Shown here: positions 3,711-63,947 of the stretch, piece after piece | Layout of the letters: every line of letters begins with the position of its first letter | Position numbering within the stretch: position 1 is the first letter of the stretch | Assembly: GCA_964035575.1 (NCBI GenBank) | Contig: OZ037838.1 | Location: forward strand, 1,612,001-1,676,000 | Direction: 5' to 3' | Origin: Rhynchopus sp. YZ270_cl-10 | Taxonomy: Eukaryota | Length of the DNA: 64,000 nt | Notes under the pieces: model-generated | The model's database searches: none | Told to the model about the DNA's origin: nothing | What the model saw: only the letters and a program-made list of their open reading frames with translations | Position numbers and translations under genes: made by a program

Positions 3711-4872
3711 ATGGATGTGACCTTTGTGCTGGAAGAGTCAGGCGTGACTGCGACAGTGGAGGTGCCGTGCGAGGCGGACGTTGCAGCGGCAAAGGAGGTT
3801 GCGTGCACGGCGCTTGCTGTCTCGCCTGCGTCTGTCGAGATGCGCATCGGCACGCAGGTGCTGGAGGGGACGTGCCGTCTGCAGGACACTGCGTTTGATG
3901 CAGGGGTGCAGGTTGTGCTTGCCCGCCGCTTTGCCGACATCAAGTGTCCTGCTGAGTACACTGTAGAGGATGGGATTGATATACATGACGGCGACGCACT
4001 GTTCACTGCGACGCATACGGGAGATGTGTCGCTGTCGCGTTGTGGAACGCTCTGCGTTTTTTGTCCGCACGGGAGTGGGCATGTTGGCGGCTTCGACACA
4101 GAAACCTTCGACACCGTCTTCTCATTTGAAGTGGACAATGAAGTACACAGTCGGCTTGCCATCTCGCAGTGCAAGACACGCTGCTACCTGGCGTGTGGGG
4201 ACTGCCTTCTCGAGGTTGCCCTTCCGGGTGGGGAGGTGGTCCGCAAAGTCGACAGCTCCTCGTACTCAGTGTTCGCGTGTGGCGGTGTTGTTGTCTCCCA
4301 AGGCACAGACGGCGTCTCTGTGTATGACAAATACCTGACGTTGCTCCGCTCTCTCTCGCACAAAGAGTGTGCGGGCTTTGCACTGTCTGACTGTGGTGGG
4401 TGGGTGGTCACCTGCTCCGACAAAGAGAAGAACGCACGTCTGTGGGATGTGAACACGGGTGAAGCTGTGGCATGTGCGGTGGCGGTACGAAGCAGTGGCG
4501 CTTTCACGATGTGCCTCTGTCTTTGCTGTGGCGGGCTCTGGCAACGTGCACCTCTTTGACTGGAGTGGTGCGGCTCTTCGCAGTGCTGATGTAGGTGCGG
4601 ATGTTGGGGACATGCAGTTCACACCATGTGGGAAGTACCTTGTGGTGAGGGTAGGGGTTGAGGAACCTCATGATAACGACAGTGATTGGGTCAGTTACAG
4701 TACATACCTGCACCAGTATGATGTGGCGACCATGTCTTGTGTGCGTGTGATGCCACAATGCACATTCTCCGACTCCGTTTCATTTGCGATATCGCCGTGT
4801 TCACGTGTTGTTGTGGTTACGCAACGACATGGCGTCATTGCGACAAGACATCTGTACCCACACAACAGGTAA
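3711..4872 (+). pseudogene. UBL-beta-propeller family copy 1, frameshifted
   Basis: Starts MDVTFVLEESG; frame changes near 4475 (family motifs continue in the 4459-4872 frame); last codons altered by the insertion at 4869. Confidence 0.85.
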
Positions 4873-7595
4873 ACGTTTTTTAAAAATAGGATGGAGCACC
4901 CCGGTCCGAAAAGGAATGCAGCCACCCCTGGCTTCAGGCTCGCGAACCCAGTATTGCAGTAACACTGGGTCTCACGGGCCAAAAACCGAACAAAGAAAAG
5001 GAAAATGTTTGGGTTCAGCGACAGCGCCAATGGGCTGACGCGAGGCTGAACCAACTTAAAATAAAATAAAAAATCTTGTATCAACTTGAAAAGGAAAAGC
5101 AATGAACAGCAACAGAGCCATTTGGGCTTACGCGTCGCTATAGTAACTGAAAAACAATGTTTTAAAAACAAGAATGTCGTTGACCAAGATTGAAATACAC
5201 GAAAAAGGTAAAATACTAAGAATTGCCTCATATTCCATGGGCATCGTTTCTGATGTTGTAGTTTGTCTGCTGAGTGATCACGCGCCCCCCCTACTAGGGA
5301 GGTCTTAGGTTCATGCTTCGGCTAGCATGTAAAAGCTACCATGTCGCCGAAGTTAGCGGTCCTCGTATTCCATGAGGTCTTTCAGATGTTGTTGTTTGAC
5401 TGCTGAGTGATCACGCGCCCCCCCTACTAGGGAGGTCTTAGGTTCAGGCTTCGGCTTGCACGTAAAGAACTACCATGTAGTCGAAGTTAGCGGTCCTCGT
5501 ATTCCATGAGGCATTTCTGATGATGTTGTTTGTCTGCTGAGTGATCACGCGCCCCCCCTACTAGGGAGGTCTTAGGTTCAGGCTTCGGCTAGCACGTAAA
5601 AGCTACCATGTCGTCGAAGTTAGCGGTCCTCGTATTCCATGAGGTCTTTCAGATGTTGTTGTTTGACTGCTGAGTGATCACGCGCCCCCCCTACTAGGGA
5701 GGTCTTAGGTTCAGGCTTCGGCTAGCACGTAAAAGCTACCATGTCGTCGAAGTTAGCGGTCCTCGTATTCCATGAGGTCTTTCAGATGTTGTTGTTTGAC
5801 TGCTGAGTGATCACGCGCCCCCCCTACTAGGGAGGTCTTAGGTTCATGCTTCGGCTTGCACGTAAAAGCTACCATGTCGTCGAAGTTAGCGGTCCTCGTA
5901 TTCCATGAGGTCTTTCAGATGTTGTTGTTTGACTGCTGAGTGATCACGCGCCCCCCCTACTAGGGAGGTCTTAGGTTCATGCTTCGGCTAGCACGTAAAA
6001 GCTACCATGTCGTCGAAGTTAGCGGTCCTCGTATTCCATGAGGTCTTTCAGATGTTGTTGTTTGACTGCTGAGTGATCACGCGCCCCCCCTACTAGGGAG
6101 GTCTTAGGTTCGGGCTTCGGCTTGCACGTAGAAGCTACCATGTCGCCGAAGTTAGCGGTCCTCGTATTCCATGAGGTCTTTCAAATGTTGTTGTTTGACT
6201 GCTGAGTGATCACGCGCCCCCCCTACTAGGGAGGTCTTAGGTTCATGCTTCGGCTTGCACGTAAAGAACTACCATGTCGCCGAAGTTAGCGGTCCTCGTA
6301 TTCCATGAGGCATTTCTGATGTAGTTTGACTGCTGAGTGATCACGCGCCCCCCCTACTAGGGAGGTCTTAGGTTCATGCTTCGGCTAGCACGTAAAAGCT
6401 ACCATGTCGTCGAAGTTAGCGGTCCTCGTATTCCATGAGGTCTTTCAGATGTTGTTGTTTGACTGCTGAGTGATCACGCGCCCCCCCTACTAGGGAGGTC
6501 TTAGGTTCATGCTTCGGCTAGCACGTAAAAGCTACCATGTCGTCGAAGTTAGCGGTCCTCGTATTCCATGAGGCATTTCTGATGTAGTTTGACTGCTGAG
6601 TGATCACGCGCCCCCCCTACTAGGGAGGTCTTAGGTTCATGCTTCGGCTAGCACGTAAAAGCTACCATGTCGTCGAAGTTAGCGGTCCTCGTATTCCATG
6701 AGGCATTTCTGATGTAGTTTGTCTGCTGAGTGATCACGCGCCCCCCCTACTAGGGAGGTCTTAGGTTCATGCTTCGGCTAGCACGTAAAAGCTACCATGT
6801 CGTCGAAGTTAGCGGTCCTCGTATTCCATGAGGTCTTTCAGATGTTGTTGTTTGACTGCTGAGTGATCACGCGCCCCCCCTACTAGGGAGGTCTTAGGTT
6901 CATGCTTCGGCTTGCACGTAAAGAACTACCATGTCGCCGAAGTTAGCGGTCCTCGTATTCCATGAGGTCTTTCAGATGTTGTTGTTTGACTGCTGAGTGA
7001 TCACGCGCCCCCCCTACTAGGGAGGTCTTAGGTTCATGCTTCGGCTTGCACGTAAAGAACTACCATGTCGCCGAAGTTAGCGGTCCTCGTATTCCATGAG
7101 GTCTTTCAGATGTTGTTGTTTGTCTGCTGAGTGATCACGCGCCCCCCCTACTAGGGAGGTCTTAGGTTCATGCTTCGGCTAGCACGTAAAAGCTACCATG
7201 TCGTCGAAGTTAGCGGTCCTCGTATTCCATGAGGCATTTCTGATGTAGTTTGTCTGCTGAGTGATCACGCGCCCCCCCTACTAGGGAGGTCTTAGGTTCA
7301 TGCTTCGGCTTGCACGTAAAAGCTACCATGTCGTCGAAGTTAGCGGTCCTCGTATTCCATGAGGCATTTCTGATGATGTTGTTTGACTGCTGAGTGATCA
7401 CGCGCCCCCCCTACTAGGGAGGTCTTAGGTTCATGCTTCGGCTAGCACGTAAAAGCTACCATGTCGCGAAGTTAGCGGTCCTCGTATTCCATGAGGCACT
7501 TCAGATGTTGTTCTTCTTTTTCTTCTTGTTCCGAGTCTTTGCCGCAGTCCACTGCGTTGCCCGGGGTCACCTCGTGGAGGTGCTCGGTAAAACCC
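4869..7595 (-). mobile_element. Non-autonomous non-LTR-type (SINE-like) insertion, ~2.7 kb
   Basis: Target duplication CATCTGTACCCACACAACAG at 4849-4868 and 7596-7615; the normal family 3' end (TGAGTGATGTGTGACC) resumes after it; HDV-like fold at the minus-strand 5' end; no ORF and no poly(A). Confidence 0.8.
5230..7510. repeat. ~133-bp tandem array, ~17 copies, internal to the retroelement-like insertion
   Basis: TGAGTGATCACGCGCCCCCCCTACTAGGG recurs at 5271, 5404, 5538, 5671... Confidence 0.95.
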
Positions 7596-7596
7596 C
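7531..7596 (-). ncRNA. Putative HDV-like self-cleaving ribozyme
   Basis: Minus strand reads GGGGUU-UUA-CCGAGC-ACC-UCCACGA-GGU-GACCCC-GG-GCAAC-GCAG UGGA CUGC-GG-CAAA-GACUCGG. P1, P2, P3, L3, P1.1, P4 and a J4/2 C can all be assigned, and it begins at the TSD junction. Confidence 0.72.
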
Positions 7597-8122: not shown

Positions 8123-9244
8123 ATGATGGATGTGACCTTTGTGCTGGAAGAGTCAGGCGTGACTGCGACAGTGGAGGTGCCGTGCGAGGCGGACGTTGCA
8201 GCGGCAAAGGAGGTTGCGTGCACGGCGCTTGCTGTCTCGCCTGCGTCTGTCGAGATGCGCATCGGCACGCAGGTGCTGGAGGGGACGTGCCGTCTGCAGG
8301 ACACTGCGTTTGATGCAGGGGTGCAGGTTGTGCTTGCCCGCCCTCGCTTGGCCGACATCAAGTGTCCTGCTGAGTACACTGTACCACCGCGTACGGGAGA
8401 CTTTTCGCTGTCGCGTTGTGGAACGCAATGCGTCTATAGTTACGGGAGTGGGCATGTTGGCGGCTTCGACACAGAAACCTTCGACACTGTCTTCGAGTTT
8501 AAAATGGGCAATAATATAGTGCATGGTGCGCCTGCCATCTCGCAGTGCAAGACACGCTGCTACATGGCATGCAAGGAGGAAGGCCTTCTCGAAGTTGCGC
8601 TTCCGGGTGGGGAGGTGGTCCGCAAAGTCGACGGCACCTCGTGCTCAGTGTTTTCCTGTGGCGGTGTTGTTGTCTCGAAGGGAGAAAGTGGCGTCTCTGT
8701 GTATGACGAAGACCTGACGTTGCTCCGCTCTCTCTCGCATGAAATGTGCAATAGAGTGGCAGTGTCTGACTGTGGTGGGTGGGTGATCACCTCCTCCCAC
8801 AAGGAGAACAAGGCACGTCTGTGGGATGTGAACACAGGTGAAGCTGTTGCATGTGTGCCTCTGGGGTGGCGGTACGCAGTGGCGCTTTCACAGTCTGCCT
8901 CTGTCTTTGCTGTGGTGGTGAACGAAAGCGTGCACCTCTATGACTGGAGTGGTGCGGCTCTTCGCAGTATTGCTGTGCACGGGGATATCGAGTACATGCA
9001 GTTCACCCCGTGTGGGAAGTACCTTGTGGTGCGAGTAAAGTTTTCGGATTATGTTGACGATGAAGGTTGGCCTATTTACGATACATACCTGCACCAGTAT
9101 GATGTGGCAACCATGTCCCGTGTGCGTGTGATACCATGCAACAGTTCATGGTTTGCGATATCGCCGTGTTCGCGCGTTGTTGTGGTTATGCAATCAGGTG
9201 ACGTCATTGTGACGAGACATCTGTATCCACACAACAGTGAGTGA
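8123..9244 (+). CDS. UBL-like domain + 7-bladed beta-propeller, copy 2
   Basis: Intact ORF; WD-like motifs RLWDVNTGE, LYDWSG, QFTPCGKYL, AISPCSRV. Confidence 0.85.
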   Translation: MMDVTFVLEESGVTATVEVPCEADVAAAKEVACTALAVSPASVEMRIGTQVLEGTCRLQDTAFDAGVQVVLARPRLADIKCPAEYTVPPRTGDFSLSRCGTQCVYSYGSGHVGGFDTETFDTVFEFKMGNNIVHGAPAISQCKTRCYMACKEEGLLEVALPGGEVVRKVDGTSCSVFSCGGVVVSKGESGVSVYDEDLTLLRSLSHEMCNRVAVSDCGGWVITSSHKENKARLWDVNTGEAVACVPLGWRYAVALSQSASVFAVVVNESVHLYDWSGAALRSIAVHGDIEYMQFTPCGKYLVVRVKFSDYVDDEGWPIYDTYLHQYDVATMSRVRVIPCNSSWFAISPCSRVVVVMQSGDVIVTRHLYPHNSE

Positions 9245-9579: not shown

Positions 9580-10457
9580 ATGGATGTGACCTTTGTGCTG
9601 GAAGAGTCAGGCGTGACTGCGACAGTGGAGGTGCCGTGCGAGGCGGACGCTGCAGCGGCAAAGGAGGTTGCGTGCACGGCGCTTGCTGTCTCGCCTGCGT
9701 CTGTCGAGATGCGCATCGGCACGCAGGTGCTGGAGGGGACGTGCCGTCTGCAGGACACTGCGTTTGGTGCAGGGGTGCAGGTTGTGCTTGCCCGCCGCTT
9801 TGCCGACATCAAGTGTCCTGCTGAGTACAATTTCGAGAGGTCGTCTAATAACCCAATGATCTCGCTGTCGCGTTGTGGAACGCTCTGCATCTATGTTTGT
9901 GATACGAATGTTGTTGGCTTCGACACAGAAACCTTTGCCTCTGTCTTTGAGTTCAGCATACCCCATATTGTGAGTCGGTGGCCGGCTGCCATCTCGCAGT
10001 GCAAGACACGCTGCTACCTGGCATGCGAGGAAGGCCTTCTCGAGGTTGCACTTCCGGGTGGGGAGGTGCTCCGCGAAGTCGACGGCTCCCCTTACGCAGT
10101 GTTCGCGTGTGGTAGTGTTGTTGTCTCACGCAGCTTAGACGGCATCTCTGTGTATGACGAAGACCTGACGTTGCTCCGCTTTCTGTCGTACGAAGGGTGC
10201 TATGAGGTGGAACTGTCGGACTGTGGTGGGTGGGTGATCGCTCACTCGAACAAGGAGAAGAACGTACGTCTGTGGGATGTGAACACAGGTGAAGATGTGG
10301 CATGTGTACCGCTGGAGGAGGCGTGGGCGGTGACGATTTCCCGGTCTGCTTCTGTCTTTGCTGTAGAGGTGGAGGTGGGACAGTGCGTGTGCCTCTTTGA
10401 TTGGAGTGGTGCGGCTCTTGGCAGCATTGATGTGGAGGAGTATGTAGACGCAATGCT
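9580..10457 (+). pseudogene. Family copy 3, 3'-truncated
   Basis: Homology stops after SIDVEEYVDAM; last two blades are missing and it runs into the leader of copy 4. Confidence 0.8.
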
Positions 10458-10552
10458 GCGTGTTGATGTGTCAGATCCGAGTGTACATGCAATACAATCA
10501 ACCCACACCTCATCTCCTCCCAACAGAGCTGGAACAAGAAGAAGACAAAACA

Positions 10553-11683
10553 ATGGATGTGACCTTTGTGCTGGAAGAGTCAGGCGTGACTGCGACAGTG
10601 GAGGTGCCGTGCGAGGCGGACGCTGCAGCGGCAAAGGAGGTTGCGTGCACGGCGCTTGCTGTCTCGCCTGCGTCTGTCGAGATGCGCATCGGCACGCAGG
10701 TGCTGGAGGGGACGTGCCGTCTGCAGGACACTGCGTTTGATGCAGGGGTGCAGGTTGTGCTTGCCCGCCGCTTTGCCGATATCAAGTGTCCTGCTGAGTA
10801 CAGTGCAGAGGCGCCACCTGGGAGTTGTCGGAAGCATATTAATCGTTTAACGCTGTCTCCTTGTGGAGCACTCTGCCTCTTTACACAGAATCCAGCTTAT
10901 ACCACCGGATTCGATACTGAAACCTTCAGCACTGCCTTCAGGTTCAAAGTAGACATTGAGATGTCTGGTGCGCCTGCCATCTCACGGTGCAAGACACGCT
11001 GCTACCTGGCGTGTTGGAAAGGTCTGCACGAGGTTGCGCTTCCGGGTGGGGAGGTGCTCCGCAAAGTCGACGGCCCCTCGTTCCAAGTGTTCGCGTGTGG
11101 CGGTGTTGTTGTATCCCAAGGCGAAGACGGGGTCTCTGTGTATGACGAAGACCTGACGTTGCTCCGCTCTCTCTCGCACGAAGGGTGCGGGAAGGTGGCA
11201 GTGTCGGACTGTGGTGGGTGGGTGATCACTTCCTCCTCCAGTGAGAAGAACGCACGTCTGTGGGATGTGAACACAGGTGAAGCTGTGGCATGTGTGCCTG
11301 CGGATGCGAGACACGTTGCGCTTTCACGGTCTGCCTCTGTCTTTGCTGTGGCGAGTTCTGGCAAAGTGCAGCTCTATGACTGGAGTGGTGCGGCTCTTGG
11401 CAGCTTTGCAAAGGAGCAGTATCACGTCTGTGCCGTGCAGTTCACTCCGTGTGGGAAGTACGTCGTTGTTGGGTTTGAGGATGGTGCACCATTTTTTGAT
11501 CCGTTTCGTGAGGAGTACACTCTGCACCAGTATGATGTGGCGACCATGTCTTGTGTGCGTGTGATACAGGACAGCAATGGTGTATTTGCGATATCGCCGT
11601 GTTCACGTGTGCTTGTGTTCAAGGCAGCAGGAGGTGCCGCAGGATGTGGCGCCCTTGTCACAAGGCATCTGTACCCCTACTGA
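10553..11683 (+). CDS. UBL-beta-propeller family copy 4
   Basis: Intact ORF with all family motifs. Confidence 0.85.
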   Translation: MDVTFVLEESGVTATVEVPCEADAAAAKEVACTALAVSPASVEMRIGTQVLEGTCRLQDTAFDAGVQVVLARRFADIKCPAEYSAEAPPGSCRKHINRLTLSPCGALCLFTQNPAYTTGFDTETFSTAFRFKVDIEMSGAPAISRCKTRCYLACWKGLHEVALPGGEVLRKVDGPSFQVFACGGVVVSQGEDGVSVYDEDLTLLRSLSHEGCGKVAVSDCGGWVITSSSSEKNARLWDVNTGEAVACVPADARHVALSRSASVFAVASSGKVQLYDWSGAALGSFAKEQYHVCAVQFTPCGKYVVVGFEDGAPFFDPFREEYTLHQYDVATMSCVRVIQDSNGVFAISPCSRVLVFKAAGGAAGCGALVTRHLYPY

Positions 11684-11978: not shown

Positions 11979-13109
11979 ATGGATGTGACCTTTGTGCTGG
12001 AAGAGTCAGGCGTGACTGCGACAGTGGAGGTGCCGTGCGAGGCGGACGTTGCAGCGGCAAAGGAGATTGCGTGCACGGCGCTTTCTGTCTCGCCTGCGTC
12101 TGTCGAGATGCGCATCGGCACGCAGGTGCTGGAGGGGACGTGCCGTCTGCAGGACACTGCGTTTGATGCAGGGGTGCAGGTTGTGCTTGCCCGCCGCTTT
12201 GCTGACATCAAGTGTCCTGCTGAGTACAATGTAGAGGTGCCCACTGGTGGACAGGGGCTGGATCTGATTCGTTTTTCGCTGCCTCCTTGTGGAGCACTCT
12301 GCCTCTTTACACATAAGGAAGGCTATTTCACCGTCCTCGATACAGAAACCTTCAGCCCTGCCTTCAAGTTCACAGTAGACGTTAGTGTGTGCGGTCCGCC
12401 TGCCATCTCACGGTGCAAGACACGCTGCTATCTGCCGTGTAGGGATGGTGTGCACGAGGTTGCGCTTCCGGGTGGGAATGTGCTCCGCAAACTCGACGGC
12501 CCCTCGTACTTAGTCTTCGCGTGTGGTGGTGTTGTTGTCTCCCAAGGCAAAGACGGCGTCTCTGTGTATGACGAAGACCTGACGTTGCTCCGCACTCTCT
12601 CGCACGAAGGGTGCAACCTGTGGGGCGGGAGCATGGCAGTGTCGGACTGTGGTGGGTGGGTGATCACTTCCTCCCTCAGTGAGATGAATGCACATCTGTG
12701 GGATGTGAACACAGGTGAAGATGTGGCATGTGTGCCTATGTCAAGGTGCATTGTAGCGCTGTCAAGGTCTGCCTCTGTCTTTGCTGTGGTGGACAATGTG
12801 GATGGGGCACGGAGTGTGCAGCTCTACGACTGGAGTGGTACGGCTCTTCAGAACGCCACTATGTCTGGACGTGCGGTTGGCCTGCAATTCACCCCGTGTG
12901 GGAAGTACCTTGTGGTCCGTGTACAAGAGTATGGAGCAGTATATGGAGAGCTGCACCAGTACGATGTGGCGACCATGTCCTGTGTACTTGTGATCCCTGA
13001 TGCTACCGGTGCGTCATTTACGATATCACCGTGTTCACGTGTGGTTGTGTTTGTATCATCCAACAACGCCACTATTGCGACAAGACATCTGCACCCCCAC
13101 AACGAGTGA
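11979..13109 (+). CDS. UBL-beta-propeller family copy 5
   Basis: Intact ORF with all family motifs. Confidence 0.85.
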   Translation: MDVTFVLEESGVTATVEVPCEADVAAAKEIACTALSVSPASVEMRIGTQVLEGTCRLQDTAFDAGVQVVLARRFADIKCPAEYNVEVPTGGQGLDLIRFSLPPCGALCLFTHKEGYFTVLDTETFSPAFKFTVDVSVCGPPAISRCKTRCYLPCRDGVHEVALPGGNVLRKLDGPSYLVFACGGVVVSQGKDGVSVYDEDLTLLRTLSHEGCNLWGGSMAVSDCGGWVITSSLSEMNAHLWDVNTGEDVACVPMSRCIVALSRSASVFAVVDNVDGARSVQLYDWSGTALQNATMSGRAVGLQFTPCGKYLVVRVQEYGAVYGELHQYDVATMSCVLVIPDATGASFTISPCSRVVVFVSSNNATIATRHLHPHNE

Positions 13110-13543: not shown

Positions 13544-14683
13544 ATGATGGATGTGACCTTTGTGCTGGAAGAGTCAGGCGTGACTGCGACAGTGGAGGTG
13601 CCGTGCGAAGCAAACGTTGCAGCGGCAAAGGAGGTTGCGTGCACGGCGCTTGCTGTCTCGCCTGCGTCTGTCGAGATGCGCATCGGCACGCAGGTGCTGG
13701 AGGGGACGTGCCGTCTGCAGGACACTGCGTTTGATGCAGGAGTGCAGGTTGTGCTTGCCCGCCCTCGCTTTGCCGACATCAAGTGTCCTGCTGAGTACAG
13801 TGTAGAGTCGCCACCTGGAAGGCCAACTGGTGGGCATCGGAAGAATCTGAATCGTTTAACGCTGTCTCCTTGTGGAGCACTCTGCCTCTTTACACAGAGG
13901 CCAGGTCATGTGACAGGCTTCGATACAGAAACCTTCAACCCTGCCTTCAAGTTCGAAGTAGACCTCGAGGTGCGCGGTGTGCCTGCCATCTCACGGTGCA
14001 AGACACGCTGCTACCTGCCGTGCTGGGAAGGTATGTACGAGGTTGCGCTTCCGGGTGGGAATGTGCTCCGCAAAGTCGATGGCCCCTCCTCCTCAGTGTT
14101 CGCGTGTGGCGGTGTTGTTGTATCCCTTGGCGAAAGGAGCGTCTCTGTGTATGACGAAGACCTGACGTTGCTCCACACTCTCTCGCACAAGGGGTGCGCC
14201 CAGTGGTGCGGGAACGTGGTAGTCTCTGACTGTGGTGGGTGGATAATCACCCCCTCCCTCAGTGAGATGAATGCACGTCTGTGGGATGTGAACACAGGTG
14301 AAGATGTGGCATGTGTGCCTGCGGATGGGAGTCATGTAGCGCTTTCACGGTGTGCCTCTGTCTTTGCTGTGGTGTGCTCTGACAAAGTGCAGCTCTACGA
14401 CTGGAGTGGTGCGGCTCTTGGCAGCTGTGAAAAGGAGCAGTCTCGCGTCTGTGCCGTGCAGTTCACTCCATGTGGGAAGTACGTCGTTGTTGACTTTGTA
14501 CGTGGTGAACTATTTTGTGAAGAGTACACTCTGCACCAGTATGATGTGGCGACCATGTCCTGTGTGCGTACGTTCCCGGACGTCGCTCCCTTGGCATTTG
14601 CGATATCGCCGTGTTCACGTGTGGTACTATTTACGAACTTGGGACGAGACACTATTGTGACGAGGCATCTGTACCCCTACTGA
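13544..14683 (+). CDS. UBL-beta-propeller family copy 6
   Basis: Intact ORF; start placed at the family ATG. Confidence 0.85.
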   Translation: MMDVTFVLEESGVTATVEVPCEANVAAAKEVACTALAVSPASVEMRIGTQVLEGTCRLQDTAFDAGVQVVLARPRFADIKCPAEYSVESPPGRPTGGHRKNLNRLTLSPCGALCLFTQRPGHVTGFDTETFNPAFKFEVDLEVRGVPAISRCKTRCYLPCWEGMYEVALPGGNVLRKVDGPSSSVFACGGVVVSLGERSVSVYDEDLTLLHTLSHKGCAQWCGNVVVSDCGGWIITPSLSEMNARLWDVNTGEDVACVPADGSHVALSRCASVFAVVCSDKVQLYDWSGAALGSCEKEQSRVCAVQFTPCGKYVVVDFVRGELFCEEYTLHQYDVATMSCVRTFPDVAPLAFAISPCSRVVLFTNLGRDTIVTRHLYPY

Positions 14684-15191: not shown

Positions 15192-16349
15192 ATGGATGTG
15201 ACCTTTGTGCTGGAAGAGTCAGGAGTGACTGCGACAGTGGAGGTGCCGTGCGAGGCGGACGTTGCAGCGGCAAAGGAGGTTGCGTGCACGGCGCTTGCTG
15301 TCTCGCCTGCGTCTGTCGAGATGCGCATCGGCACGCAGGTGCTGGAGGGGACGTGCCGTCTGCAGGACACTGCGTTTGATGCAGGGGTGCAGGTTGTGCT
15401 TGCCCGCCGCTTTGCTGACATCAAGTGTCCTGCTGTGCACAGTCTGTCGGAAAACTTTCGTAACTTGCGTAACTCCTCGTTGTCTCCTTGTGGAACGCTC
15501 TGTCTCTATTTCCACTCGAAAGATTACAATATCTGTGCCGGCGTCGGCTTTGACACAGAAACCTTCGAGACTGCCTTCAAGTTTGAAATCGTACTTGGTG
15601 GGCTTGGTCCAGCTGCCATCTCACGGTGCAAGACACACTGCTACATGGCATTTAGGCATTATCTTGCTAAGGTTGCCCTTCCGGGTGGGGAGGTGGTCCG
15701 CAAAGTCGAAGGCCTCTCGACGTCGGTGTTCGCGTCTGGCGGTGTTGTTGTCTCGCAGGGCACAGCTGGCGTCTCTGTGTATGACGAAGACCTGACGTTG
15801 CTCCGCACTCTCTCGCACGAAGGGTGCAACGAGGGGACCGACGTGGCAGTCTCTGACTGTGGTGGGTGGGTGATCACCTCCTCCTTCACGGAGCAAAACG
15901 CACGTCTGTGGGATGTGAACACAGGTGAAGCTGTGGCATGTGTGCCTGCGGATGGGTGGGGTGCAGTGGCGCTTTCACGGTCTGCCTCTGTCTTTGCTGT
16001 GAAGTGGTCTGGCAAAGTGCAGCTCTATGACTGGAGTGGTGCGGCTCTTGGCAGCTTTGCAAAGGAGCAGTCTCGCGTCTTTGCCGTGCAGTTCACTCCG
16101 TGTGGGAAGTACGTCGTTGCTGGGTCTGTGAGTGGTGAGTATGACGGTTCTGAAGAGTGCACCCTGCACCAGTATGATGTGGCGACCATGTCCTGTGTCC
16201 ATGTGATACCAAATGCCAACCAAGCTATGTTTGCGATATCGCCGTGTTCACATGTGGTTTTGTTTGAGTCAGGAGAAAGTGACGACCTTGTGTCACAGCA
16301 TCTGTACCCCTACTTGAGTGATGTTTCGGAAGAAAACAGAGAAGAGTAG
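15192..16349 (+). CDS. UBL-beta-propeller family copy 7
   Basis: Intact ORF with a short C-terminal extension LSDVSEENREE. Confidence 0.85.
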   Translation: MDVTFVLEESGVTATVEVPCEADVAAAKEVACTALAVSPASVEMRIGTQVLEGTCRLQDTAFDAGVQVVLARRFADIKCPAVHSLSENFRNLRNSSLSPCGTLCLYFHSKDYNICAGVGFDTETFETAFKFEIVLGGLGPAAISRCKTHCYMAFRHYLAKVALPGGEVVRKVEGLSTSVFASGGVVVSQGTAGVSVYDEDLTLLRTLSHEGCNEGTDVAVSDCGGWVITSSFTEQNARLWDVNTGEAVACVPADGWGAVALSRSASVFAVKWSGKVQLYDWSGAALGSFAKEQSRVFAVQFTPCGKYVVAGSVSGEYDGSEECTLHQYDVATMSCVHVIPNANQAMFAISPCSHVVLFESGESDDLVSQHLYPYLSDVSEENREE

Positions 16350-16766: not shown

Positions 16767-17326
16767 ATGGATGTGACCTTTGTGCTGGAAGAGTCAGGCG
16801 TGACTGCGACAGTGGAGGTGCCGTGCGAGGCGGACGTTGCAGCGGCAAAGGAGGTTGCGTGCACGGCGCTTGCTGTCTCGCCTGCGTCTGTCAAGATGCG
16901 CATCGGCACGCAGGTGCTGGAGGGGACGTGCCGTCTGCAGGACACTGCGTTTGATGCAGGGGTGCAGGTTGTGCTTGCCCGCCGCTTTGCCGACATCAAG
17001 TGTCCTGCTGAGTACACTGTACCACCGCATACGGAACACTTTTTTTTGTCGCTGTCTTCTTGTGGAACACTTTGCGTTTATTCCCATAATGGCGTGTCCA
17101 CGCGTGTTGGTGGCTTCAACACGGAAACCTTCGAGACTGCGTTTGAGTTGGAAATCGATTTATCTGGTCGAGGTCCGCCTGTCATCTCTCGATGCAAGAC
17201 ACGCTGCTACATGGCGTGCAAGGAAGGTCTGCACGAGGTTGCGCTTCCGGGTGGGGAGGTGCTCCGCAAAGTCGACGGCAACTCAATAGCAGTGTTCGCG
17301 TGTGGTGGTGTTGTTGTCTCCCAAGG
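16767..17326 (+). pseudogene. Family copy 8, 5' half (interrupted by element A)
   Basis: Breaks at VVVSQG and resumes as EDGVSVYDED at 42121. Confidence 0.92.
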
Positions 17327-17800
17327 TAGGGGGTCTCCTGGTCAGTACATTAGCTGTCCGAAAAATTAGTAAATAAATAAAAAATGCTCTATGTGCTCAG
17401 AAACGGCACAGGGGTCCCCCAGAAAACATTTTCTGCACAATTCGTCACAACCCGCACTGGATTAGTGCCTTTTTTTGGGCCTAAAATTCAAAAATTCAAA
17501 AATGGCTTTGTACAAGGGCGTTTTTTGCGTGTTTTTTCATGATTTTTCAAAGTCGCCAAAAATCATGTAAAATACGGCTTCCCACCCAACATTCTCCCCA
17601 CAGCGTCGTTCTGACACCCATATGCCCCAAAAAAACAGGTTTTTTTATATTTTTTTCCACACCCAATGCATCATAAAAAATACACATTTCCACCAAACTC
17701 TACTAACCCACCGCACCCACAGAAAAATTTCTTAACTATGTGTACCTAAGTGTTCAAAGCGACGCGTTTTTAAAAAAAAGTAAAACAAAATCATAAAAAA

Positions 17801-17880
17801 TGGGGTAAAACGCCACCTGGGGTCACAAGGCCCAGGCTCCTACCTTTACAGGTAGGGGAGCTGTTGAGTGACCCATCGGA
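17801..17880. promoter_or_regulatory. Conserved 80-bp structured block preceding each 122-bp array (also 24861-24940 and 26885-26964)
   Basis: Near-identical in A, B and C; GGGTCAC/GTGACCC outer stem and CCTACCT-TTAC-AGGTAGG hairpin; function unknown. Confidence 0.5.
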
Positions 17881-17909
17881 AAATGGGTCAATGTCTATTC
17901 ATGAAATCT

Positions 17910-23860: not shown

Positions 23861-23877
23861 ACCGCAACCGCAATAAT

Positions 23878-49570: not shown

Positions 49571-50695
49571 ATGGACAACACAGCTCTTGAAACAATGATG
49601 GATGTGACCTTTGTGCTGGAAGAGTCAGGCGTGACTGCGACAGTGGAGGTGCCGTGCGAGGCGGACGTTGCAGCGGCAAAGGAGGTTGCGTGCACGGCGC
49701 TTGCTGTCTCGCCTGCGTCTGTCGAGATGCGCATCGGCACGCAGGTGCTGGAGGGGACGTGCCGTCTGCAGGACACTGCGTTTGATGCAGGGGTGCAGGT
49801 TGTGCTTGCCCGCCGCTTTGCCGACATCAAGTGTCCTGCTGAGTACACTGTACCACCACGCACGGAACCCTTGTCGCTGTCTTCCTGTGGAGCACTCTGT
49901 GTTTATTCCCATAATGGCGAGTCCACGCGTGTTGGTGGATTCGACACAGAAACCTTCGAGACTGCTTTTGAGTTTGAAATCGATTTATCTGGTCGAGGTC
50001 CGCCTGTCATCTCACGGTGCAAGACACGCTGCTACATGGCGTGCAAGGAAGGTCTGCACGAGGTTGCGCTTCCGGGTGGGGAAGTGCTCCGCAAAGTCAA
50101 CGGCGACTCAATAGCAGTGTCCGCGTGTGGTGGTGTTGTTGTCTCCCAAGGTGAAGACGGCGTCTCTGTGTATGATGAAGACCTGACGTTTCTCCGCTCT
50201 CTCTCGCATGAAGGGTGTGTGCGCTTTGCACTGTCTGACTGTGGTGGGTGGGTGATCACCTCCTCCACAACAGAGCAGAACGCACGTCTGTGGGATGTGA
50301 ACACAGGTGAAGCTGTGGTGTGTGTGCCTGCAAAGGGGTGCAAGGTGGCGCTTTCACGGTCTGCTTCAGTCTTTGCTTTGGGATACGCTCACGTAGTGGA
50401 GATCTATGACTGGAGTGGTGCGGCTCTTGGCAGCTTTAAAAAAGCTAAGTCTTCTGTTCTCTTCTCCATGCAGTTCACACCGTGTGGGAAGTATCTCGTA
50501 GTTAAGTATGCCAAGGGATATTATCACGGATATTCCCTGCACCAGTATGACGTGGCGACCATGTCCTGTGTGCGTGTGTTCTCCAACCCCGGCTTCGCTC
50601 CCGCATCATTTGCGATATCGCCGTGTTCACGTGTGGTAGTGTTTACGAACGCGGGACGAGACACCATTGTGACGAGGTATCTGTACCCCTACTGA
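49571..50695 (+). CDS. UBL-beta-propeller family copy 12
   Basis: Intact ORF; a doubled leader gives ATGs at 49571 and 49595. Confidence 0.85.
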   Translation: MDNTALETMMDVTFVLEESGVTATVEVPCEADVAAAKEVACTALAVSPASVEMRIGTQVLEGTCRLQDTAFDAGVQVVLARRFADIKCPAEYTVPPRTEPLSLSSCGALCVYSHNGESTRVGGFDTETFETAFEFEIDLSGRGPPVISRCKTRCYMACKEGLHEVALPGGEVLRKVNGDSIAVSACGGVVVSQGEDGVSVYDEDLTFLRSLSHEGCVRFALSDCGGWVITSSTTEQNARLWDVNTGEAVVCVPAKGCKVALSRSASVFALGYAHVVEIYDWSGAALGSFKKAKSSVLFSMQFTPCGKYLVVKYAKGYYHGYSLHQYDVATMSCVRVFSNPGFAPASFAISPCSRVVVFTNAGRDTIVTRYLYPY

Positions 50696-51203: not shown

Positions 51204-52334
51204 ATGGATGTGACCTTTGTGCTGGAAGAGTCAGGCGTGACTGCGACAGTGGAGGTGCCGTGCGAGGCGGACGCTGCAGCGGCAAAGGAGGTTGCGTGCA
51301 CGGCGCTTGCTGTCTCGCCTGCGTCTGTCGAGATGCGCATCGGCACGCAGGTGCTGGAAGGGACGTGCCGTCTGCAGGACACTGCGTTTGATGCAGGGGT
51401 GCAGGTTGTGCTTGCCCGCCCTTGCTTGGCCGACATCAAGTGTCCTGCTGAGTACAGTGTAGAGGCGCCACCTGGTGGACAGCGGATGGATATACATAAC
51501 TTTTCGCTGTCTCCTTGTGGAGCACTCTGCCTCTTCATAGAACGTACAGCCAATATGAACCTGCCAACTCTTTGCTATGTCACCGGCCTCGATACAGAAA
51601 CCCTCAGCTCTGCCTTCAGGTTCAAAGTAGACATTGAGGTATACTGTGCGCCTGCCATCTCACGGTGCAAGACACGCTGCTACCTGATGACGGATTGTCT
51701 TGCCAAGATTGCGCTTCCGGGTGGGGAGGTGCTCCGCAAAGTCGATAGCAGCTCGCACACAGTGTTCGCGCGTGGCAATGTTGTTATATCCCAAGGGAAA
51801 AGCGGCGTCTCTGTGTATGACGAAGACCTGACGTTGCTCCGCTCTCTCTCGCATGAAGGGTGTCTCAACGTGGCACTGTCTGACTGTGGTGGGTGGGTGA
51901 TCACCTCCTCCTACAGTGAGCACAACGTACGTCTGTGGGATGTGAACACAGGTGAAGCTGTGGCATGTGTGCCTGTTGGGAATCACGTGGCGCTTTCAGC
52001 AACTGCCTCTGTCTTTGCTGTGGAGTGCTCTGACAAAGTGCAGCTCTATGACTGGAGTGGTGCGGCTCTTCGCAGCTTTAAAAAGTGTCATGGTCATATG
52101 CTTGTTGGCCTGCAGTTCACTCCGTGTGGGAAGTATCTCGTAGTATGGGTGATGGATATGGATGCTGAAAAATATTTACTGCACCAGTATGATGTGGCGA
52201 CCATGTCCTGTGTGCGTGTGATACCGGACTGCGACAGCTGCCGTGAGTTTACGCTATCGCCGTGTTCACGTGTGGTACTCTTTACGAACAGGAGACGAGA
52301 CAGTATTGTGACGAGACATCTGCACCCCTACTGA
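51204..52334 (+). CDS. UBL-beta-propeller family copy 13
   Basis: Intact ORF. Confidence 0.85.
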   Translation: MDVTFVLEESGVTATVEVPCEADAAAAKEVACTALAVSPASVEMRIGTQVLEGTCRLQDTAFDAGVQVVLARPCLADIKCPAEYSVEAPPGGQRMDIHNFSLSPCGALCLFIERTANMNLPTLCYVTGLDTETLSSAFRFKVDIEVYCAPAISRCKTRCYLMTDCLAKIALPGGEVLRKVDSSSHTVFARGNVVISQGKSGVSVYDEDLTLLRSLSHEGCLNVALSDCGGWVITSSYSEHNVRLWDVNTGEAVACVPVGNHVALSATASVFAVECSDKVQLYDWSGAALRSFKKCHGHMLVGLQFTPCGKYLVVWVMDMDAEKYLLHQYDVATMSCVRVIPDCDSCREFTLSPCSRVVLFTNRRRDSIVTRHLHPY

Positions 52335-53027: not shown

Positions 53028-53977
53028 ATGGATGTGACCCTTGTGCTGGAAGAGTCAGGCGTGACTGCGACAGTGGAGGTGCCGTGCGACGCAAACGTTG
53101 CAGCGGCAAAGGAGGTTGCGTGCACGGCGCTTGCTGTCTCGCCTGCGTCTGTCGAGATGCGCATCGGCACGCAGGTGCTGGAGGGGACGTGCCGTCTGCA
53201 GGACACTGCGTTTGATGCAGGGGTGCAGGTTGTGCTTGCCCGCCGCTTTGCTGACATCAAGTGTCCTGCTGAGTACGAGTACAGTCTGCAGAGGGCAAGC
53301 GACAACTTGTCACTGTCACGTTGTGGAACGCTCTGCGTCCATACGGGGTGTAGGCATGTTGAAGGCTTCGACACAGAATCCTTCGACGCTGTATTCACGT
53401 TTGGATTGGGCAATGGAGTGTTCGGTCCGCCTGCCATCTCGCAGTGCAAGACACGCTGCTACCTGGCGTGTTGGGAAGAAGGTCTGCACGAGGTTGCGCT
53501 TCCGGGTGGCGAAGTACTCCGCAAAATCGACGGCTGCTCAATAGCAGTGTTCGCGTGTGGCAATGTTGTTGTGTCGAAGGGCAAAGACGTCGTCTCTGTG
53601 TATGACGAAGACCTGACGTTGCTCCGCACTCTCTCGCACGAAGGGTGTATGGGTGTGGCAGTGTCTGACTGTGGTGGGTGGGTGATCACCTCTTCCGACA
53701 AGGAGAAGAACGCACTTCTGTGGGATGTGAACACAGGTGAAGCTGTTGCATGTGTGCCGGCGGGCTGGCGCAAAGGAGCGGCGCTTTCACGATGTGCCTC
53801 TGTCTTTTCTGTGGGGGTGGACAACACCGTGAGGATCTATGACTGGAGTGGTGCGGCCCTTCGCATCGCTCAGTTGCGTCCTTTGCGATATCACCGTGTT
53901 CACGTGTTGTTGTGGCATTGGAAGAGGATAGCGACGAGATTGTGACAAGGCATCTGTACCCGCACAACAGTAAGTGA
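53028..53977 (+). pseudogene. Family copy 14, internal deletion of blade 6 with frameshift
   Basis: Jumps from DWSGAALR to SFAISPCSRV out of frame near 53870. Confidence 0.85.
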
Positions 53978-54172: not shown

Positions 54173-55264
54173 ATGATGGATGTGACCTTTGTGCTGGAAG
54201 AGTCAGGCATGACTGTGACAGTGGAGGTGCCGTGCGAGGCGAACGTTGCAGCGGCAAAGGAGATTGCGTGCACGGCGCTTGCTGTTTCGCCTGCGTCTGT
54301 CGAGATGCGCATCGGCACGCAGGTGCTGGAGGGGACGTGCCGTCTGCAGGACACTGCGTTTGGTGCAGGGGTGCAGGTTGTGCTTGCCCGCCGCTTTGCC
54401 GACATCAAGTGTCCTGCTGAGTACAGTACACGGATGGGGGTGCAATACTTGTCGCTGTCTCGTTGTGGAACGCTCTGCATTTACCGTGACCTGCTTGACC
54501 GCGTTTGTGGCTTCGACACAGAAACCTTCAGCACTGCCTTCGAGTTCACACTGGGTTCGTATGGTCCTCCTGCCATCTCACGGTGCAAGACACGCTGCTA
54601 CCTGGCGTGTGAGGATTGGCTTCTCGAGGTTGCGCTTCCGGGTGGGGAGGTGCTCCGCAAAGTCGACGGCTCCTGTACGTCGGTGTATGCGTGTGGCGGT
54701 GTTGTTGTCTCCCAAGGTGAAGACGGCGTCTCTGTGTATGACGAAGACCTGACGTTGCTCCGCTTTCTCTCACACAAATATCAGCGGCCCCGTTTCATTG
54801 CAGTGTCTGACTGTGGTGGGTGGGTGATCACCTCCTCTGATGTGGACAGAATTGCATCTCTGTGGGATGTGAACACAGGTGAAGCTGTTGCACGGGTACG
54901 TGCGGATCGGAGGCGTGTGGCTCTTTCACGGTCTGCCTCTGTCTTTGCTGTGGATTGCTCTAAAAAAGTGCAGCTCTATGACTGGAGTGGTGCGGCTCTT
55001 GGCAGCTTTGACAAGGAGCAGTGCCAGGTCTACTGCATACACTTCACTCCGTGTGGGAAGTACCTCGTTGCTGGGTTTGAGAGAGGTGAATCATTTTGTG
55101 AACAGAAAACTCTTCACCAGTATGATGTGGCGACCATGTCCTGTGTGCGTGTGATACAGGACAGTTTCAGTGAGTCGTTTGCGATATCGCCGTGTTCACG
55201 TGTGGTTATGTTTGGTTCATCAAAAAGTGACGAACTTGTCACAAGACATCTGTACCCCTACTGA
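54173..55264 (+). CDS. UBL-beta-propeller family copy 15
   Basis: Intact ORF. Confidence 0.85.
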   Translation: MMDVTFVLEESGMTVTVEVPCEANVAAAKEIACTALAVSPASVEMRIGTQVLEGTCRLQDTAFGAGVQVVLARRFADIKCPAEYSTRMGVQYLSLSRCGTLCIYRDLLDRVCGFDTETFSTAFEFTLGSYGPPAISRCKTRCYLACEDWLLEVALPGGEVLRKVDGSCTSVYACGGVVVSQGEDGVSVYDEDLTLLRFLSHKYQRPRFIAVSDCGGWVITSSDVDRIASLWDVNTGEAVARVRADRRRVALSRSASVFAVDCSKKVQLYDWSGAALGSFDKEQCQVYCIHFTPCGKYLVAGFERGESFCEQKTLHQYDVATMSCVRVIQDSFSESFAISPCSRVVMFGSSKSDELVTRHLYPY

Positions 55265-60116: not shown

Positions 60117-61331
60117 ATGGATGTGACTTTTGTGCTGGAAGAGTCAGGCGTGACTGCAACAGTGGAGGTGCCGTGCGAGGCGGACGTTGCAGCGGCAAAG
60201 GAGGTTGCGTGCACGGCGCTTGCTGTTTCGCCTGCGTCTGTCGAGATGCGCATCGGCACGCAGGTGCTGGAGGGGACGTGCCGTCTGCAGGACACTGCGT
60301 TTGATGCAGGGGTGCAGGTTGTGCTTGCCTGTCCTCGTTTGGCCGACATCAAGTGTCCTGCTGAGTACACTGTACCACAGGATACGGGAGACTTGTCGCT
60401 GTCTCCTCGTGGAACACTTTGCGTTTATTCCCATAATGGCGTGTCCACGCGTGTTGGTGGCTTCGACACAGAAACTTTTGACACTGCGTTTGAGTTTAAC
60501 ATCGATTTATCTGGTCGAGGTCCGCCAGCCGTCTCACAGTGCAAGACACGCTGCTACATGGCGTGTGAGGATTGCCTTCTCGAGGTTGCGCTTCCGGGTG
60601 GGGAGGTGCTCCGCAAAGTTGAGTGCACCTCGATGGCAGTGTTCGCGTGTGGCAGTGTTGTTGTCTCCCAAGGCATAGACGGCGTCTCTGTGTATGACGA
60701 AGACCTGAAGTTGCTCCGCTCTCTCTCACACGAAGAGTGCTGGCACGCGGCAGTGTCGCCCTGTGGTGGTTGGGTGATCACCTACTCCGTAAAAGAAGAG
60801 AACGTACGTCTGTGGGATGTGAACACAGGCGAAACTGTGTCATGTAGAGAACAGGCGGAGTGGTGGCGTGGCTGCTGGTGCATTGGTGTGGCGCTTTCGC
60901 GGTCTGCTTCTCTCTTTGCTACGGGGGAGTCTTACGGAGTACAGCTCTATGACTGGAGTGGTGCGTCTCTTCGCAGTGTTGCTGTGGATGGGAGCATCGG
61001 GGGCATGCAGTTCACACCGTGCGGGAAGTACCTTGTGGTCAGGGTGGTTGTTTTTCTGGAACATTCAGGATATAGTACGGATCATGAGTTTGATCCGGAT
61101 TACGATGATGATTGTTGCGCTATTGACTATATGGAACTCCGCCAGTACGATGTTGCGACCATGTCGTGTGTGCATGTCATACAAGAAGCCTGTGAGTCGT
61201 TTGAGATATCTCCGTGTTCACGTGTGGTTGTGTTTGCGGAGGTGCCAAGGTGTGAGTCAGACGAGGGCGGTGAAAATGCAACAACGAGTTTCATTGTAAC
61301 AAGGCTTCTGTACCCACACAACAGTGAGTGA
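60117..61331 (+). CDS. UBL-beta-propeller family copy 16
   Basis: Intact ORF with a long acidic loop in blade 6. Confidence 0.85.
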   Translation: MDVTFVLEESGVTATVEVPCEADVAAAKEVACTALAVSPASVEMRIGTQVLEGTCRLQDTAFDAGVQVVLACPRLADIKCPAEYTVPQDTGDLSLSPRGTLCVYSHNGVSTRVGGFDTETFDTAFEFNIDLSGRGPPAVSQCKTRCYMACEDCLLEVALPGGEVLRKVECTSMAVFACGSVVVSQGIDGVSVYDEDLKLLRSLSHEECWHAAVSPCGGWVITYSVKEENVRLWDVNTGETVSCREQAEWWRGCWCIGVALSRSASLFATGESYGVQLYDWSGASLRSVAVDGSIGGMQFTPCGKYLVVRVVVFLEHSGYSTDHEFDPDYDDDCCAIDYMELRQYDVATMSCVHVIQEACESFEISPCSRVVVFAEVPRCESDEGGENATTSFIVTRLLYPHNSE

Positions 61332-61497: not shown

Positions 61498-62607
61498 ATG
61501 ATGGATGTGACCTTTGTGCTGGAAGAGTCAGGCGTGACTGCGACAGTGGAGGTGCCGTGCGAGGCGGACGTTGCAGCGGCAAAGGAGGTTGCGTGCACGG
61601 CGCTTGCTGTCTCGCCTGCGTCTGTCGAGATGCGCATCGGCACGCAGGTGCTGGAGGGGACGTGCCGTCTGCAGGACACTGCGTTTGATGCAGGGGTGCA
61701 GGTTGTGCTTGCCTGTCCTCTCTTTGCCGACATCAAGTGTCCTGCTGAGTACATTTTAGAAATACGAACGACGTCGTTGACGCTGTCGCGTTGTGGAACG
61801 CTCTGCGTCTATAGTCAAGGGGGTGGGCATATTGGCGGCTTCGACACAGAAACCTTCGAAACTTCCTTCGCGTTCACAATTGGTCGTTCTGTGTACCGTG
61901 CGCCTGCCATCTCGCAGTGCAAGACACGCTGCTACATGGCGTGTGAGGATTGCCTTCTCGAGGTTGCGCTTCCGGGTGGGGAGGTGATCCGCAAGGTCGA
62001 CGGCTCCTTGCAGTCTGTGTTCGCGTGTGGTGATGTTGTTGTCTCCCGTGGCGAACACGGCGTCTCCGTGTATGACGAAGACCTGACGTTGCTCCGCACT
62101 CTCTCGCATCACAAAGGGTGCTGGCTCGTAGCAGTGTCTGACTGTGGTGGGTGGGTGATCACCTCCTCCACGAGGGAGGAGAAGGTAAGTCTGTGGGATG
62201 TGAACACAGGTGAAGCTGTGGCATGTGTGCCTGTGGATGCGTGGTGTGTGGCACTTTCACGATCTGCCTCTGTCTTTGCTGTGGAGTGCTCTGGCAACGT
62301 GCAGCTCTATGACTGGAGTGGTGCAGCTCTTCGCACTATTGATGTGGGTGGGGATGTCGAGGGCATGCAGTTCACCCCGTGTGGGAAGTACCTTGTGGTG
62401 AGGGTAGAGGGTACGGATTCTGATGATGACACAGATGACGATCACAATACACCCCTGCACCAGTATGATGTGGCGACCATGTCCTGTGTGCGTGTGATAC
62501 CAAATGTCCAACGGTTTGCGATATCGCCGTGTTCACGTGTGGTTGTGGTATTGGAAGAAGATGGCAACATTGCGACGAGACATCTATACCCACACAACAG
62601 TGAGTGA
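61498..62607 (+). CDS. UBL-beta-propeller family copy 17
   Basis: Intact ORF. Confidence 0.85.
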   Translation: MMDVTFVLEESGVTATVEVPCEADVAAAKEVACTALAVSPASVEMRIGTQVLEGTCRLQDTAFDAGVQVVLACPLFADIKCPAEYILEIRTTSLTLSRCGTLCVYSQGGGHIGGFDTETFETSFAFTIGRSVYRAPAISQCKTRCYMACEDCLLEVALPGGEVIRKVDGSLQSVFACGDVVVSRGEHGVSVYDEDLTLLRTLSHHKGCWLVAVSDCGGWVITSSTREEKVSLWDVNTGEAVACVPVDAWCVALSRSASVFAVECSGNVQLYDWSGAALRTIDVGGDVEGMQFTPCGKYLVVRVEGTDSDDDTDDDHNTPLHQYDVATMSCVRVIPNVQRFAISPCSRVVVVLEEDGNIATRHLYPHNSE

Positions 62608-62787
62608 TGTGTGACCAGGGGAGGGTGGTGATGAATATAACCCAGGGTACCAACAAAAACACCCAAGACCCTCAAAACACTCCCAAAAGCTCTCTTTTTA
62701 GCCTTGTTGCACATATTCTCTCTTCTTGTCATTGCGAAGTGACACCACACTAACCATCACATCAAACAAAACAGACCCCTTAACAAC

Positions 62788-63947
62788 ATGATGGATGTGA
62801 CCTTTGTGCTGGAAGAGTCAGGTGTGACTGCGACAGTGGAGGTGCCGTGCGAGGCGGACGCTGCAGCGGCAAAGGAGGTTGCGTGCACGGCGCTTGCTGT
62901 CTCGCCTGCGTCTGTCGAGATGCGCATCGGCACGCAGGTGCTGGAGGGGACGTGCCGTCTGCAGGACACTGCGTTTGATTCAGGGATGCAGGTTGTGCTT
63001 GCCTGTCCTCGCTTTGCCGACATCAAGTGTCCTGCTGAGTACCGTACATGGCAGAGCTTATCCCACTTCTCGTTGTCTCCTTGTGGAACGCTCTGCCTCT
63101 ATTTGCACTTTAAAGGTTTCAATCTCAGTGTCGGTTCCAGTTTTGGTGCCATCGGCTTTGACACAGAAACCTTCGAGACTACCTTCAAGTTTGAAACCGA
63201 ACTTGGTGGGCTAGGTCCAGCTGCCATCTCACGGTGCAAGACACACTGCTACATGGCGTTTAAGCATTATCTTGCCAAGGTTGCGCTTCCGGGTGGGGAG
63301 GTGGTCCGCAAAGTCGACGGCCTCTCGACGTCGGTGTTTGCGTGTGGCGATGTTGTTGTCTCGCAAGGCACAGACTGCGTCTCTGTGTATGACGAAGACC
63401 TGACGTTGCTCCGCTCTCTCTCACACGAAGGATACAGGAAGGTGGCAGTGTCGGGCTGTGGTGGTGGGTGATCACCTCCTCCTTCACGGAGCAAAACGCA
63501 CGTCTGTGGGATGTGAACACAGGTGAAGCTGTGGCATGTGTGCCTGCGGATGGGAGTCATGTGGCGCTTTCACGGTGTGCCTCTGTCTTTGCTGTGGAGT
63601 GCTCTGGCAACGTGCAACTCTACGACTGGAGTGGTGCGGCTCTTGGCAGCTTCGATAAAGGGCAGTTTCGCGTCTCTTGCATGCGCTTCACTCCGTGTGG
63701 GAAGTACGTCGTTGTTGCGTTTGTGAGCGGTAGGTATGACGGTTCTGAAGAGCACACCCGTATGACACACCAGTATGATGTGGCGACCATGTCCTGTGTG
63801 CATGTGATACCAAATGCCTACGAAGCATTTGTGATATCGACGTGTTCACATGTGGTTTTATTAGAGTCAGGAGAAAGTGACGACCTTGTGTCACAGCATC
63901 TGTACCCCTACTTGAGTGATGTTTCGGATGAAAACAGAGAAGAGTAG
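62788..63947 (+). pseudogene. Family copy 18, 1-bp frameshift near 63463 (real or a sequencing error)
   Basis: TGTGGTGGTGGGTG vs family TGTGGTGGGTGGGTG; close paralog of copy 7. Confidence 0.75.

Follow-up and report, generated by a model that had tools for sequence, protein, structure and literature searches.

The nematode F-box and MATH-BTB ubiquitin-ligase adaptors form large birth-and-death families and have been proposed as catchers of foreign proteins (PMC4334554). In Podospora anserina, the HNWD genes (het-d, het-e) are under positive selection at the d-a loop and the b-c turn and show concerted evolution (PMC1805685). In Rsa4/NLE1 and Ytm1/WDR12, a ubiquitin-like domain (UBL) is the handle for Rea1/midasin, an AAA ATPase (PMC8122580), and midnolin, with a UBL and a substrate-catching domain, delivers non-ubiquitinated proteins to the proteasome (PMC13031973). 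These systems are compared here as the parts of the papers bearing on these points describe them. The array considered in this work lies in a stretch of 64,000 nt of the Rhynchopus sp. YZ270_cl-10 contig OZ037838.1 (positions 1,612,001-1,676,000; hereafter, the window) and consists of genes for proteins in which a WD40 propeller comes after an N-terminal UBL.

The array had been described, in a reading of the sequence alone, as an antibody-like repertoire of binders on a constant adaptor. Our confidence is about evenly balanced for the reading that we favour, namely that a germline repertoire of UBL-WD40 proteins would carry out intracellular non-self surveillance, with a positively selected top face of the propeller and a shared UBL handing targets on.

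Architecture and relatives of the UBL-WD40 proteins

A six-frame motif scan of the window detected 18 gene starts with the MDVT[F/L]VLEES motif, between positions 3711 and 62791, all on the plus strand, and bore out the earlier count of 18 copies with named constant blocks in a fixed order. Thirteen copies are intact, intronless single-exon frames of 360-404 codons, and the spacers between the copies are mostly 0.1-1.4 kb. Over codons 1-71, the pairwise nucleotide identity of all 18 copies is 98.0% on average (minimum 95.3%), and 97.6% at third positions; the near-identity of the gene start, silent sites included, is thus as it had been described. The 60 bases upstream of the 18 starts are 41% identical (ungapped), and the propeller DNA of the 13 intact copies is 74% identical on average.

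A protein search with one copy gave 417 matches at E <= 0.001. The 120 listed among them all come from ENA or from the window and are 66-76% identical to the query (apart from the query itself and one partial sequence); one contig of 2,712,987 bases carries 96 of them, and another of 456,684 bases carries 18. The remaining 297 matches may include unrelated WD40 proteins. Read depth on the UBL reaches 25,000 on single contigs, apparently a ceiling, versus ~82 on single-copy DNA of the same run, which agrees with hundreds of copies and gives no copy count. Coverage of intergenic single-copy DNA is even in the four runs. Genome-wide, UBL-WD40 genes likely number in the hundreds.

When the first 83 residues were compared with 1.84 billion representative sequences, 30 matches were found. 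Among the 18 inspected, three were unrelated repeats, and the others were family members, fragments and divergent UBL-WD40 proteins, with UBL identity down to 28-42%. All eight divergent members checked come from ENA, and a further search, for which four of these served as queries, yielded five additional members, again from ENA. The tree of 43 proteins places the array in a young, star-like clade of poor resolution, nested within a set of older UBL-WD40 relatives, the long branches of which are unsure. Two divergent UBL-WD40 proteins from different contigs, P0151 and P0153, are very close to each other (85%-like) and have short branches and scattered differences. Possibly, they are a conserved, non-diversifying orthologue pair useful toward the ancestral function.

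Viral contigs, JGI metagenome contigs and phage genomes yielded no relatives in pattern scans, which reach close relatives only. Atlas leads are all below 0.9 and point to generic WD40 for the whole protein and to unnamed clusters for the UBL. In the literature covered, which includes few subscription journals, we found no published description of a UBL-WD40 expansion, either for diplonemids or for other protists. The main text of the D. papillatum genome paper contains neither 'WD40' nor 'ubiquitin', and its gene-family supplements may bear on the question (PMC10161547).

In the AlphaFold2 model based on 119 aligned family members, most of residues 80-360 have a predicted local distance difference test score (pLDDT) above 90, and seven four-stranded blades are present, with a closing strand at 81-84; with the single sequence alone, pLDDT is 37. 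Fold searches return G-beta, WDR5 and WDR61 (VIA Z ~28, root-mean-square deviation 2.4-2.5 Å, ~266 residues aligned), and the profile matches for the propeller are WDR61 and WDR5 (E 5e-9 to 2e-8). According to the model, the propeller is seven-bladed and of the WD40 type; the seven blade-like turns counted earlier are found both in the model and through the fold searches.

A single UBL sequence has no match in PDB and nothing in Pfam beyond chance; only the profile that includes divergent relatives matched. Built from nine divergent UBLs, this profile can be aligned with residues 8-71 of ubiquitin without a single gap, and it has single-domain matches at E 1.5e-4 and 2.3e-4. Weak Pfam matches to ubiquitin and Rad60-SLD were obtained in three of the nine UBLs (best ubiquitin E 2.9e-4), and the window's own copy is not among these three. 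The gapless alignment and these matches back the proposed beta-grasp type. Judged from such comparisons, the N-terminal domain is an integral, non-canonical UBL. Instead of a C-terminal diglycine, the UBL has VVLARR or VVLACP at its end, from where the chain runs on into the propeller. The counterparts of ubiquitin L8, I44 and V70 in the alignment are E9, R45 and A71, which are kept in 100%, 100% and 97%, respectively, of 117 of the 120 listed proteins (three were dropped because they failed the start pattern). The L8-I44-V70 hydrophobic patch is the contact surface of Rad23/Dsk2-type proteasome shuttle UBLs. Targeting to the ubiquitin/proteasome system had been envisaged in the sequence-only reading, but this canonical patch is absent.

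The proteins are cysteine-rich (median 19 each). Near-invariant cysteines occupy the A-B turns in most blades, as well as positions 20, 32 and 55 of the UBL. C32 of the UBL is retained even in the most divergent relatives.

Variation, tests of selection and probable gene conversion

The entropy of the same 117 proteins was compared between coils defined from the DSSP assignment of the model, to which one short strand (133-136) was added by hand. It is 2.53 bits in the top coils (46 positions) versus 0.33 bits in the bottom coils (56 positions; p ~1e-16), and 1.64 versus 0.40 bits in the top and bottom strand ends. The variation therefore lies on one face, and the placement of the variable segments at the D-A and B-C loops holds. 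In classes based on our own strand assignment, 75-114 of the 117 proteins differ in sequence around each of 14 top loops versus 6-26 for each of 13 bottom turns; all 14 top loops vary in length, whereas 12 of the 13 bottom turns are fixed. Given that the 117 proteins are the closest matches to one copy, the diversity is, if anything, understated. By the established geometry of WD40 propellers, a closing strand of the D type, as present here, puts the attachment of the UBL at the bottom face, and the variable loops are on the other side.

Divergence at fourfold-degenerate sites is 0.025 in the UBL, 0.11 in the bottom turns, 0.22 in the strands and 0.32 in the top loops, and silent divergence drops with distance from a loop. 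This rise of silent divergence in the loops, like the presence of broken copies, goes beyond the sequence-only reading. The gene histories are mosaic: compatibility is higher between neighbouring sites than after shuffling (incompatibility test, p=0.001), and blade-wise distance matrices correlate weakly in both the 13 DNA copies and the 117 proteins. Given that selection at the protein level cannot freeze silent sites, the sequences suggest that gene conversion, and not selection alone, likely maintains the constant part. Conversion that needs unbroken homology would homogenise the UBL and the framework, and the divergent, indel-rich loops would escape it, conversion being blocked there.

Whole-blade cassette swapping is rare: only 15 blade-pairs with at least 95% identity were found in 6,786 protein pairs × 7 blades. 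Adenine-biased mutagenesis of the kind produced by diversity-generating retroelements was rejected; the non-consensus share in the top loops is 0.38 for A, 0.39 for C, 0.35 for G and 0.42 for T. Every intact gene is complete in the assembled contigs, and the array appears to be a germline birth-and-death family, not a somatic system. As no somatic or adenine-biased diversifier is evident, the term 'antibody-like' can be kept as an analogy only.

Selection was estimated with codon models for the 13 intact copies. With partitions, the dN/dS ratio (omega) of the top loops is 1.78 (twice the log-likelihood difference, 2dlnL, is 23 against omega 1), or 1.8-1.9 across runs; it is 0.65 in the strands and 0.61 in the bottom turns (0.44-0.61 across runs). 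For top coils defined by DSSP only, omega is 1.48 (2dlnL 7.0). The circularity of drawn classes is avoided by a partition-free site model, a mixture over free dS and dN for 275 codons. Allowing omega >1 in this model gives 2dlnL of 45.5 with one tree and 40.4 with blade trees, and eight null simulations with blade-level recombination give 4-19.1 and 1-4.3, respectively. When multi-base changes are added, the values are 37.2 and 28.4, and those of ten corresponding nulls are 3-11.0 and 1-5.5. At the highest multi-base rate tried, which has no null calibration, 2dlnL is 23.7 with one tree and 15.5 with blade trees.

With blade trees, a posterior above 0.9 is reached by 30-33 of 68 top codons, 8-9 of 158 strand codons and 2 of 49 bottom codons. 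The number of top codons reaching it is only 7-12 when a single tree is used and multi-base changes are allowed. The dN/dS above 1 that had been anticipated for the loops thus appears, without partitions, as a class of mostly top-face codons. Positive selection falls on the putative substrate-binding part (the propeller) and not on the putative docking part (the UBL). On the propeller top face it is well supported, not proven.

Several results weigh against the reading that we favour. The codon models cover the DNA of the 13 intact copies only, and recombination within blades lies outside them. The first top and bottom classes, based on the strand assignment, were drawn after the entropy profile was known. 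Omega in the DSSP-only top coils is 1.3-1.4 and not significant when multi-base changes are allowed; the near-fixed-length loops (17 gap-free codons, omega 1.14) and the top strand ends (omega 1.03) are not significant either. In the UBL, omega is 0.51 and not significantly below 1 (2dlnL 3.1), so its constancy may owe much to conversion. The near-identity of the UBL sequences described earlier stands, but strong purifying selection as its cause is not supported, the silent sites being frozen too. In the AlphaFold2 model, the UBL (residues 1-70) has a pLDDT of 40-50, and its DSSP order, strand-strand-helix-strand-strand, fits a beta-grasp. Finally, the replacement of the L8/I44/V70 patch makes a Rad23-type proteasome contact unlikely.

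Some of these results would also be expected under neutral or selfish amplification, in which conversion would freeze the framework, the loops would drift freely by way of indels and block replacements, and omega >1 would be an artefact of alignment, multi-base changes or recombination. The loss of significance of the DSSP-only coils under the multi-hit model agrees with this explanation, as do the climb of silent divergence in the loops and the multi-base codon differences there, which are abundant even between close pairs (12-35 per pair). However, the partition-free test lies far above the nulls that include recombination and multi-base changes, and columns common to two alignments keep omega at 1.9-2.1 (2dlnL 11-12) under the multi-hit model. 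Moreover, purifying selection acts on the strands and on the bottom turns, and 13 of the 18 frames are intact despite many indels. We regard neutral amplification as quite improbable.

Gene copies and other elements of the window

Birth and death are visible along the array, in which five of the 18 copies are broken. The first copy (3711..4869) has a frameshift between ~4475 and 4495. It is followed by an intact copy of 372 aa (8126..9244) and by a truncated one (9580..10465), in which the UBL and blades 1-5 run into the leader of the next copy. The next four copies, at 10553..11683 and 11979..13109 (376 aa each), 13547..14683 (378 aa) and 15192..16349 (385 aa), are intact. A further copy is split by an insertion of 24.8 kb (17327..42113) into a 5' part (16767..17326) and a 3' part (42114..42667). 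Downstream, there are five intact copies, 43210..44313 (367 aa), 45235..46317 (360 aa), 47705..48808 (367 aa), 49598..50695 (365 aa) and 51204..52334 (376 aa). The third of these, P0001, is the modelled reference, with the UBL in codons 1-72, the closing strand 7D at ~79-84 and blades 1-7 at 91-361. In the copy at 53028..53968, blade 6 is mostly deleted and a frameshift is present. The copies at 54176..55264 (362 aa), 60117..61331 (404 aa, with a long acidic loop in blade 6) and 61501..62607 (368 aa) are intact, and the last one (62791..63911) is broken by a frameshift near 63450-63465.

The insertion is a composite, mobile-element-like sequence outside the repertoire. It has 11-bp inverted ends, a 7-bp target duplication and 122-bp satellites; its left end recurs inside at 23618 and ~26425, and its right end at ~35978-36093. 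The open reading frame (ORF) at 36149-40036 encodes a protein of 1295 aa with a USP deubiquitinase domain at the C-terminus (Pfam UCH, E 4e-44). By eye only, the middle of this ORF (37500-38300) looks like a Ulp1-type peptidase, and the ORF at 41143-41850 looks like the C-terminal half of an OTU peptidase; Pfam found neither. No match to a transposase or OTU was obtained for ten ORFs or ORF parts of the insertion.

A 133-bp satellite in 17 copies (5226-7512) lies between the first two genes and is followed by a gene 3'-end fragment (~7596-7660). Two perfect 7-bp arrays occur on opposite strands, at 696-1316 (89 units) and 1977-2095 (17 units), and a duplicated segment of 46 bp lies on either side of the former (172-217 and 1412-1457). 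Two unrelated single-copy genes within the array (55995-56924 and 57298-59499) have no Pfam match; for the first, just two relatives occur in the protein collection, and one of these is from Rhynchopus euleeides (52% identity). On this one gene, the host is probably a diplonemid.

Proposed function and comparison with known systems

To our knowledge, very little is known about the recognition of viruses or intracellular bacteria in free-living euglenozoan flagellates. In the surveillance reading, the top face of each copy would likely bind a different, probably foreign, protein in the cytosol, with viruses, intracellular bacteria and prey as candidate ligands. By way of the shared UBL and the bottom face, all copies would likely deliver what they bind to a single, fixed partner in the host, for which a machine of degradation or extraction is the most plausible candidate. 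With the usual hydrophobic patch replaced, the UBL may carry a non-canonical docking surface. A more specific version is tentative and, in our view, doubtful: a euglenozoan intracellular immunity in which several hundred germline-encoded binders, kept on one scaffold by conversion, would capture proteins of viruses or bacteria and, with no F-box, BTB or cullin involved, bring them through the non-canonical UBL directly to a machine that degrades or unfolds them. With regard to the diversified binder repertoire on a constant adaptor proposed in the sequence-only reading, the fold, the loop placement and the selection agree with it, while the canonical proteasome patch is absent and no antibody-type diversifying mechanism is evident.

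Like the HNWD propellers, as the cited account presents them, the propeller described here appears to be selected at the same two top-face loops and to undergo concerted evolution (PMC1805685). This likeness favours self or allorecognition or intragenomic conflict, in which variable endogenous or conspecific proteins (mating, kin, selfish elements) would be recognised, as by the fungal HET-E/D propellers; the UBL-WD40 family matches also came only from ENA assemblies. Nevertheless, Pfam detected no F-box, BTB or NACHT and no death or toxin effector domain in six window copies or 11 full-length relatives, and hundreds of distinct adjacent paralogues would be more in keeping with broad surveillance than with a small number of allelic specificities. 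Such recognition is unlikely in our estimation. The HNWD repeats, which are highly similar to one another and are carried by NACHT/HET proteins, are swapped blade for blade within and between ~10 genes (PMC1805685), whereas here the seven blades are mutually unlike and exchange takes place between whole paralogues at homologous positions. In addition, the loop lengths vary here, there are likely hundreds of genes, and the NACHT and death domains are missing by Pfam.

The order of domains, an integral N-terminal UBL and then a WD40 propeller, equals that of Rsa4/Ytm1 (PMC8122580). The proteins might therefore be adaptors for many endogenous clients, for example with an Rsa4/Ytm1-like UBL handle for an AAA ATPase, which grew in number by subfunctionalisation. 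Older divergent relatives do exist, including the P0151/P0153 pair on short branches. However, none of the nine UBLs matches NLE (PF08154) at E up to 1 (weak-hit filter applied), and omega >1, the broken copies and a star-like burst are ill-suited to housekeeping clients. We consider this origin rather improbable. Unlike the array, Rsa4 and Ytm1 are, in the relevant part of the cited paper, single-copy conserved ribosome assembly factors without a diversified face; they have a MIDAS-binding glutamate (E114/E80).

Among viral proteins, the top fold matches are the mimiviral BTB-WD40 proteins, which likewise are expanded adaptor-plus-propeller proteins. The likeness is at the fold level only (8-14% identity), BTB stands in place of the UBL, and the pattern scan for close relatives found none in viral contigs. 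Their similar design might point to effectors exported against prey or hosts, a diversified binding face and a high copy number being common in effector families. Yet the proteins begin at strand 1 of the UBL without a hydrophobic N-terminal segment (the maximum 19-residue hydropathy has a median of 1.37), which weakens the effector role that had been offered as an option; we take export to be very improbable.

For the surveillance reading, the parts of the two remaining papers considered here offer further precedents. As in midnolin, a UBL adaptor may serve ubiquitin-independent degradation, for which that protein is a precedent. Midnolin is a single gene product that needs a C-terminal RPN1-binding helix and places the hydrophobic face of its UBL on RPN11 (PMC13031973), whereas no such helix is present in our model and the ubiquitin-type hydrophobic patch is replaced. 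With the F-box and MATH-BTB families, the array shares a constant N-terminal docking domain joined to a positively selected substrate-binding domain (PMC4334554); it differs in that the docking is by a UBL, the host is unicellular, and homogenisation extends to silent sites in its constant part. The logic of the repertoire is already known, and the docking domain, the scale and the lineage appear to be new. The UBL would be added as a third kind of docking domain, beside F-box and BTB, in diversifying adaptor families, and one constant 72-residue UBL handle could lead to the effector machine of the whole repertoire. The array is also a natural library in which one and the same propeller scaffold bears 14 loops that tolerate variation, which is relevant to binder design.

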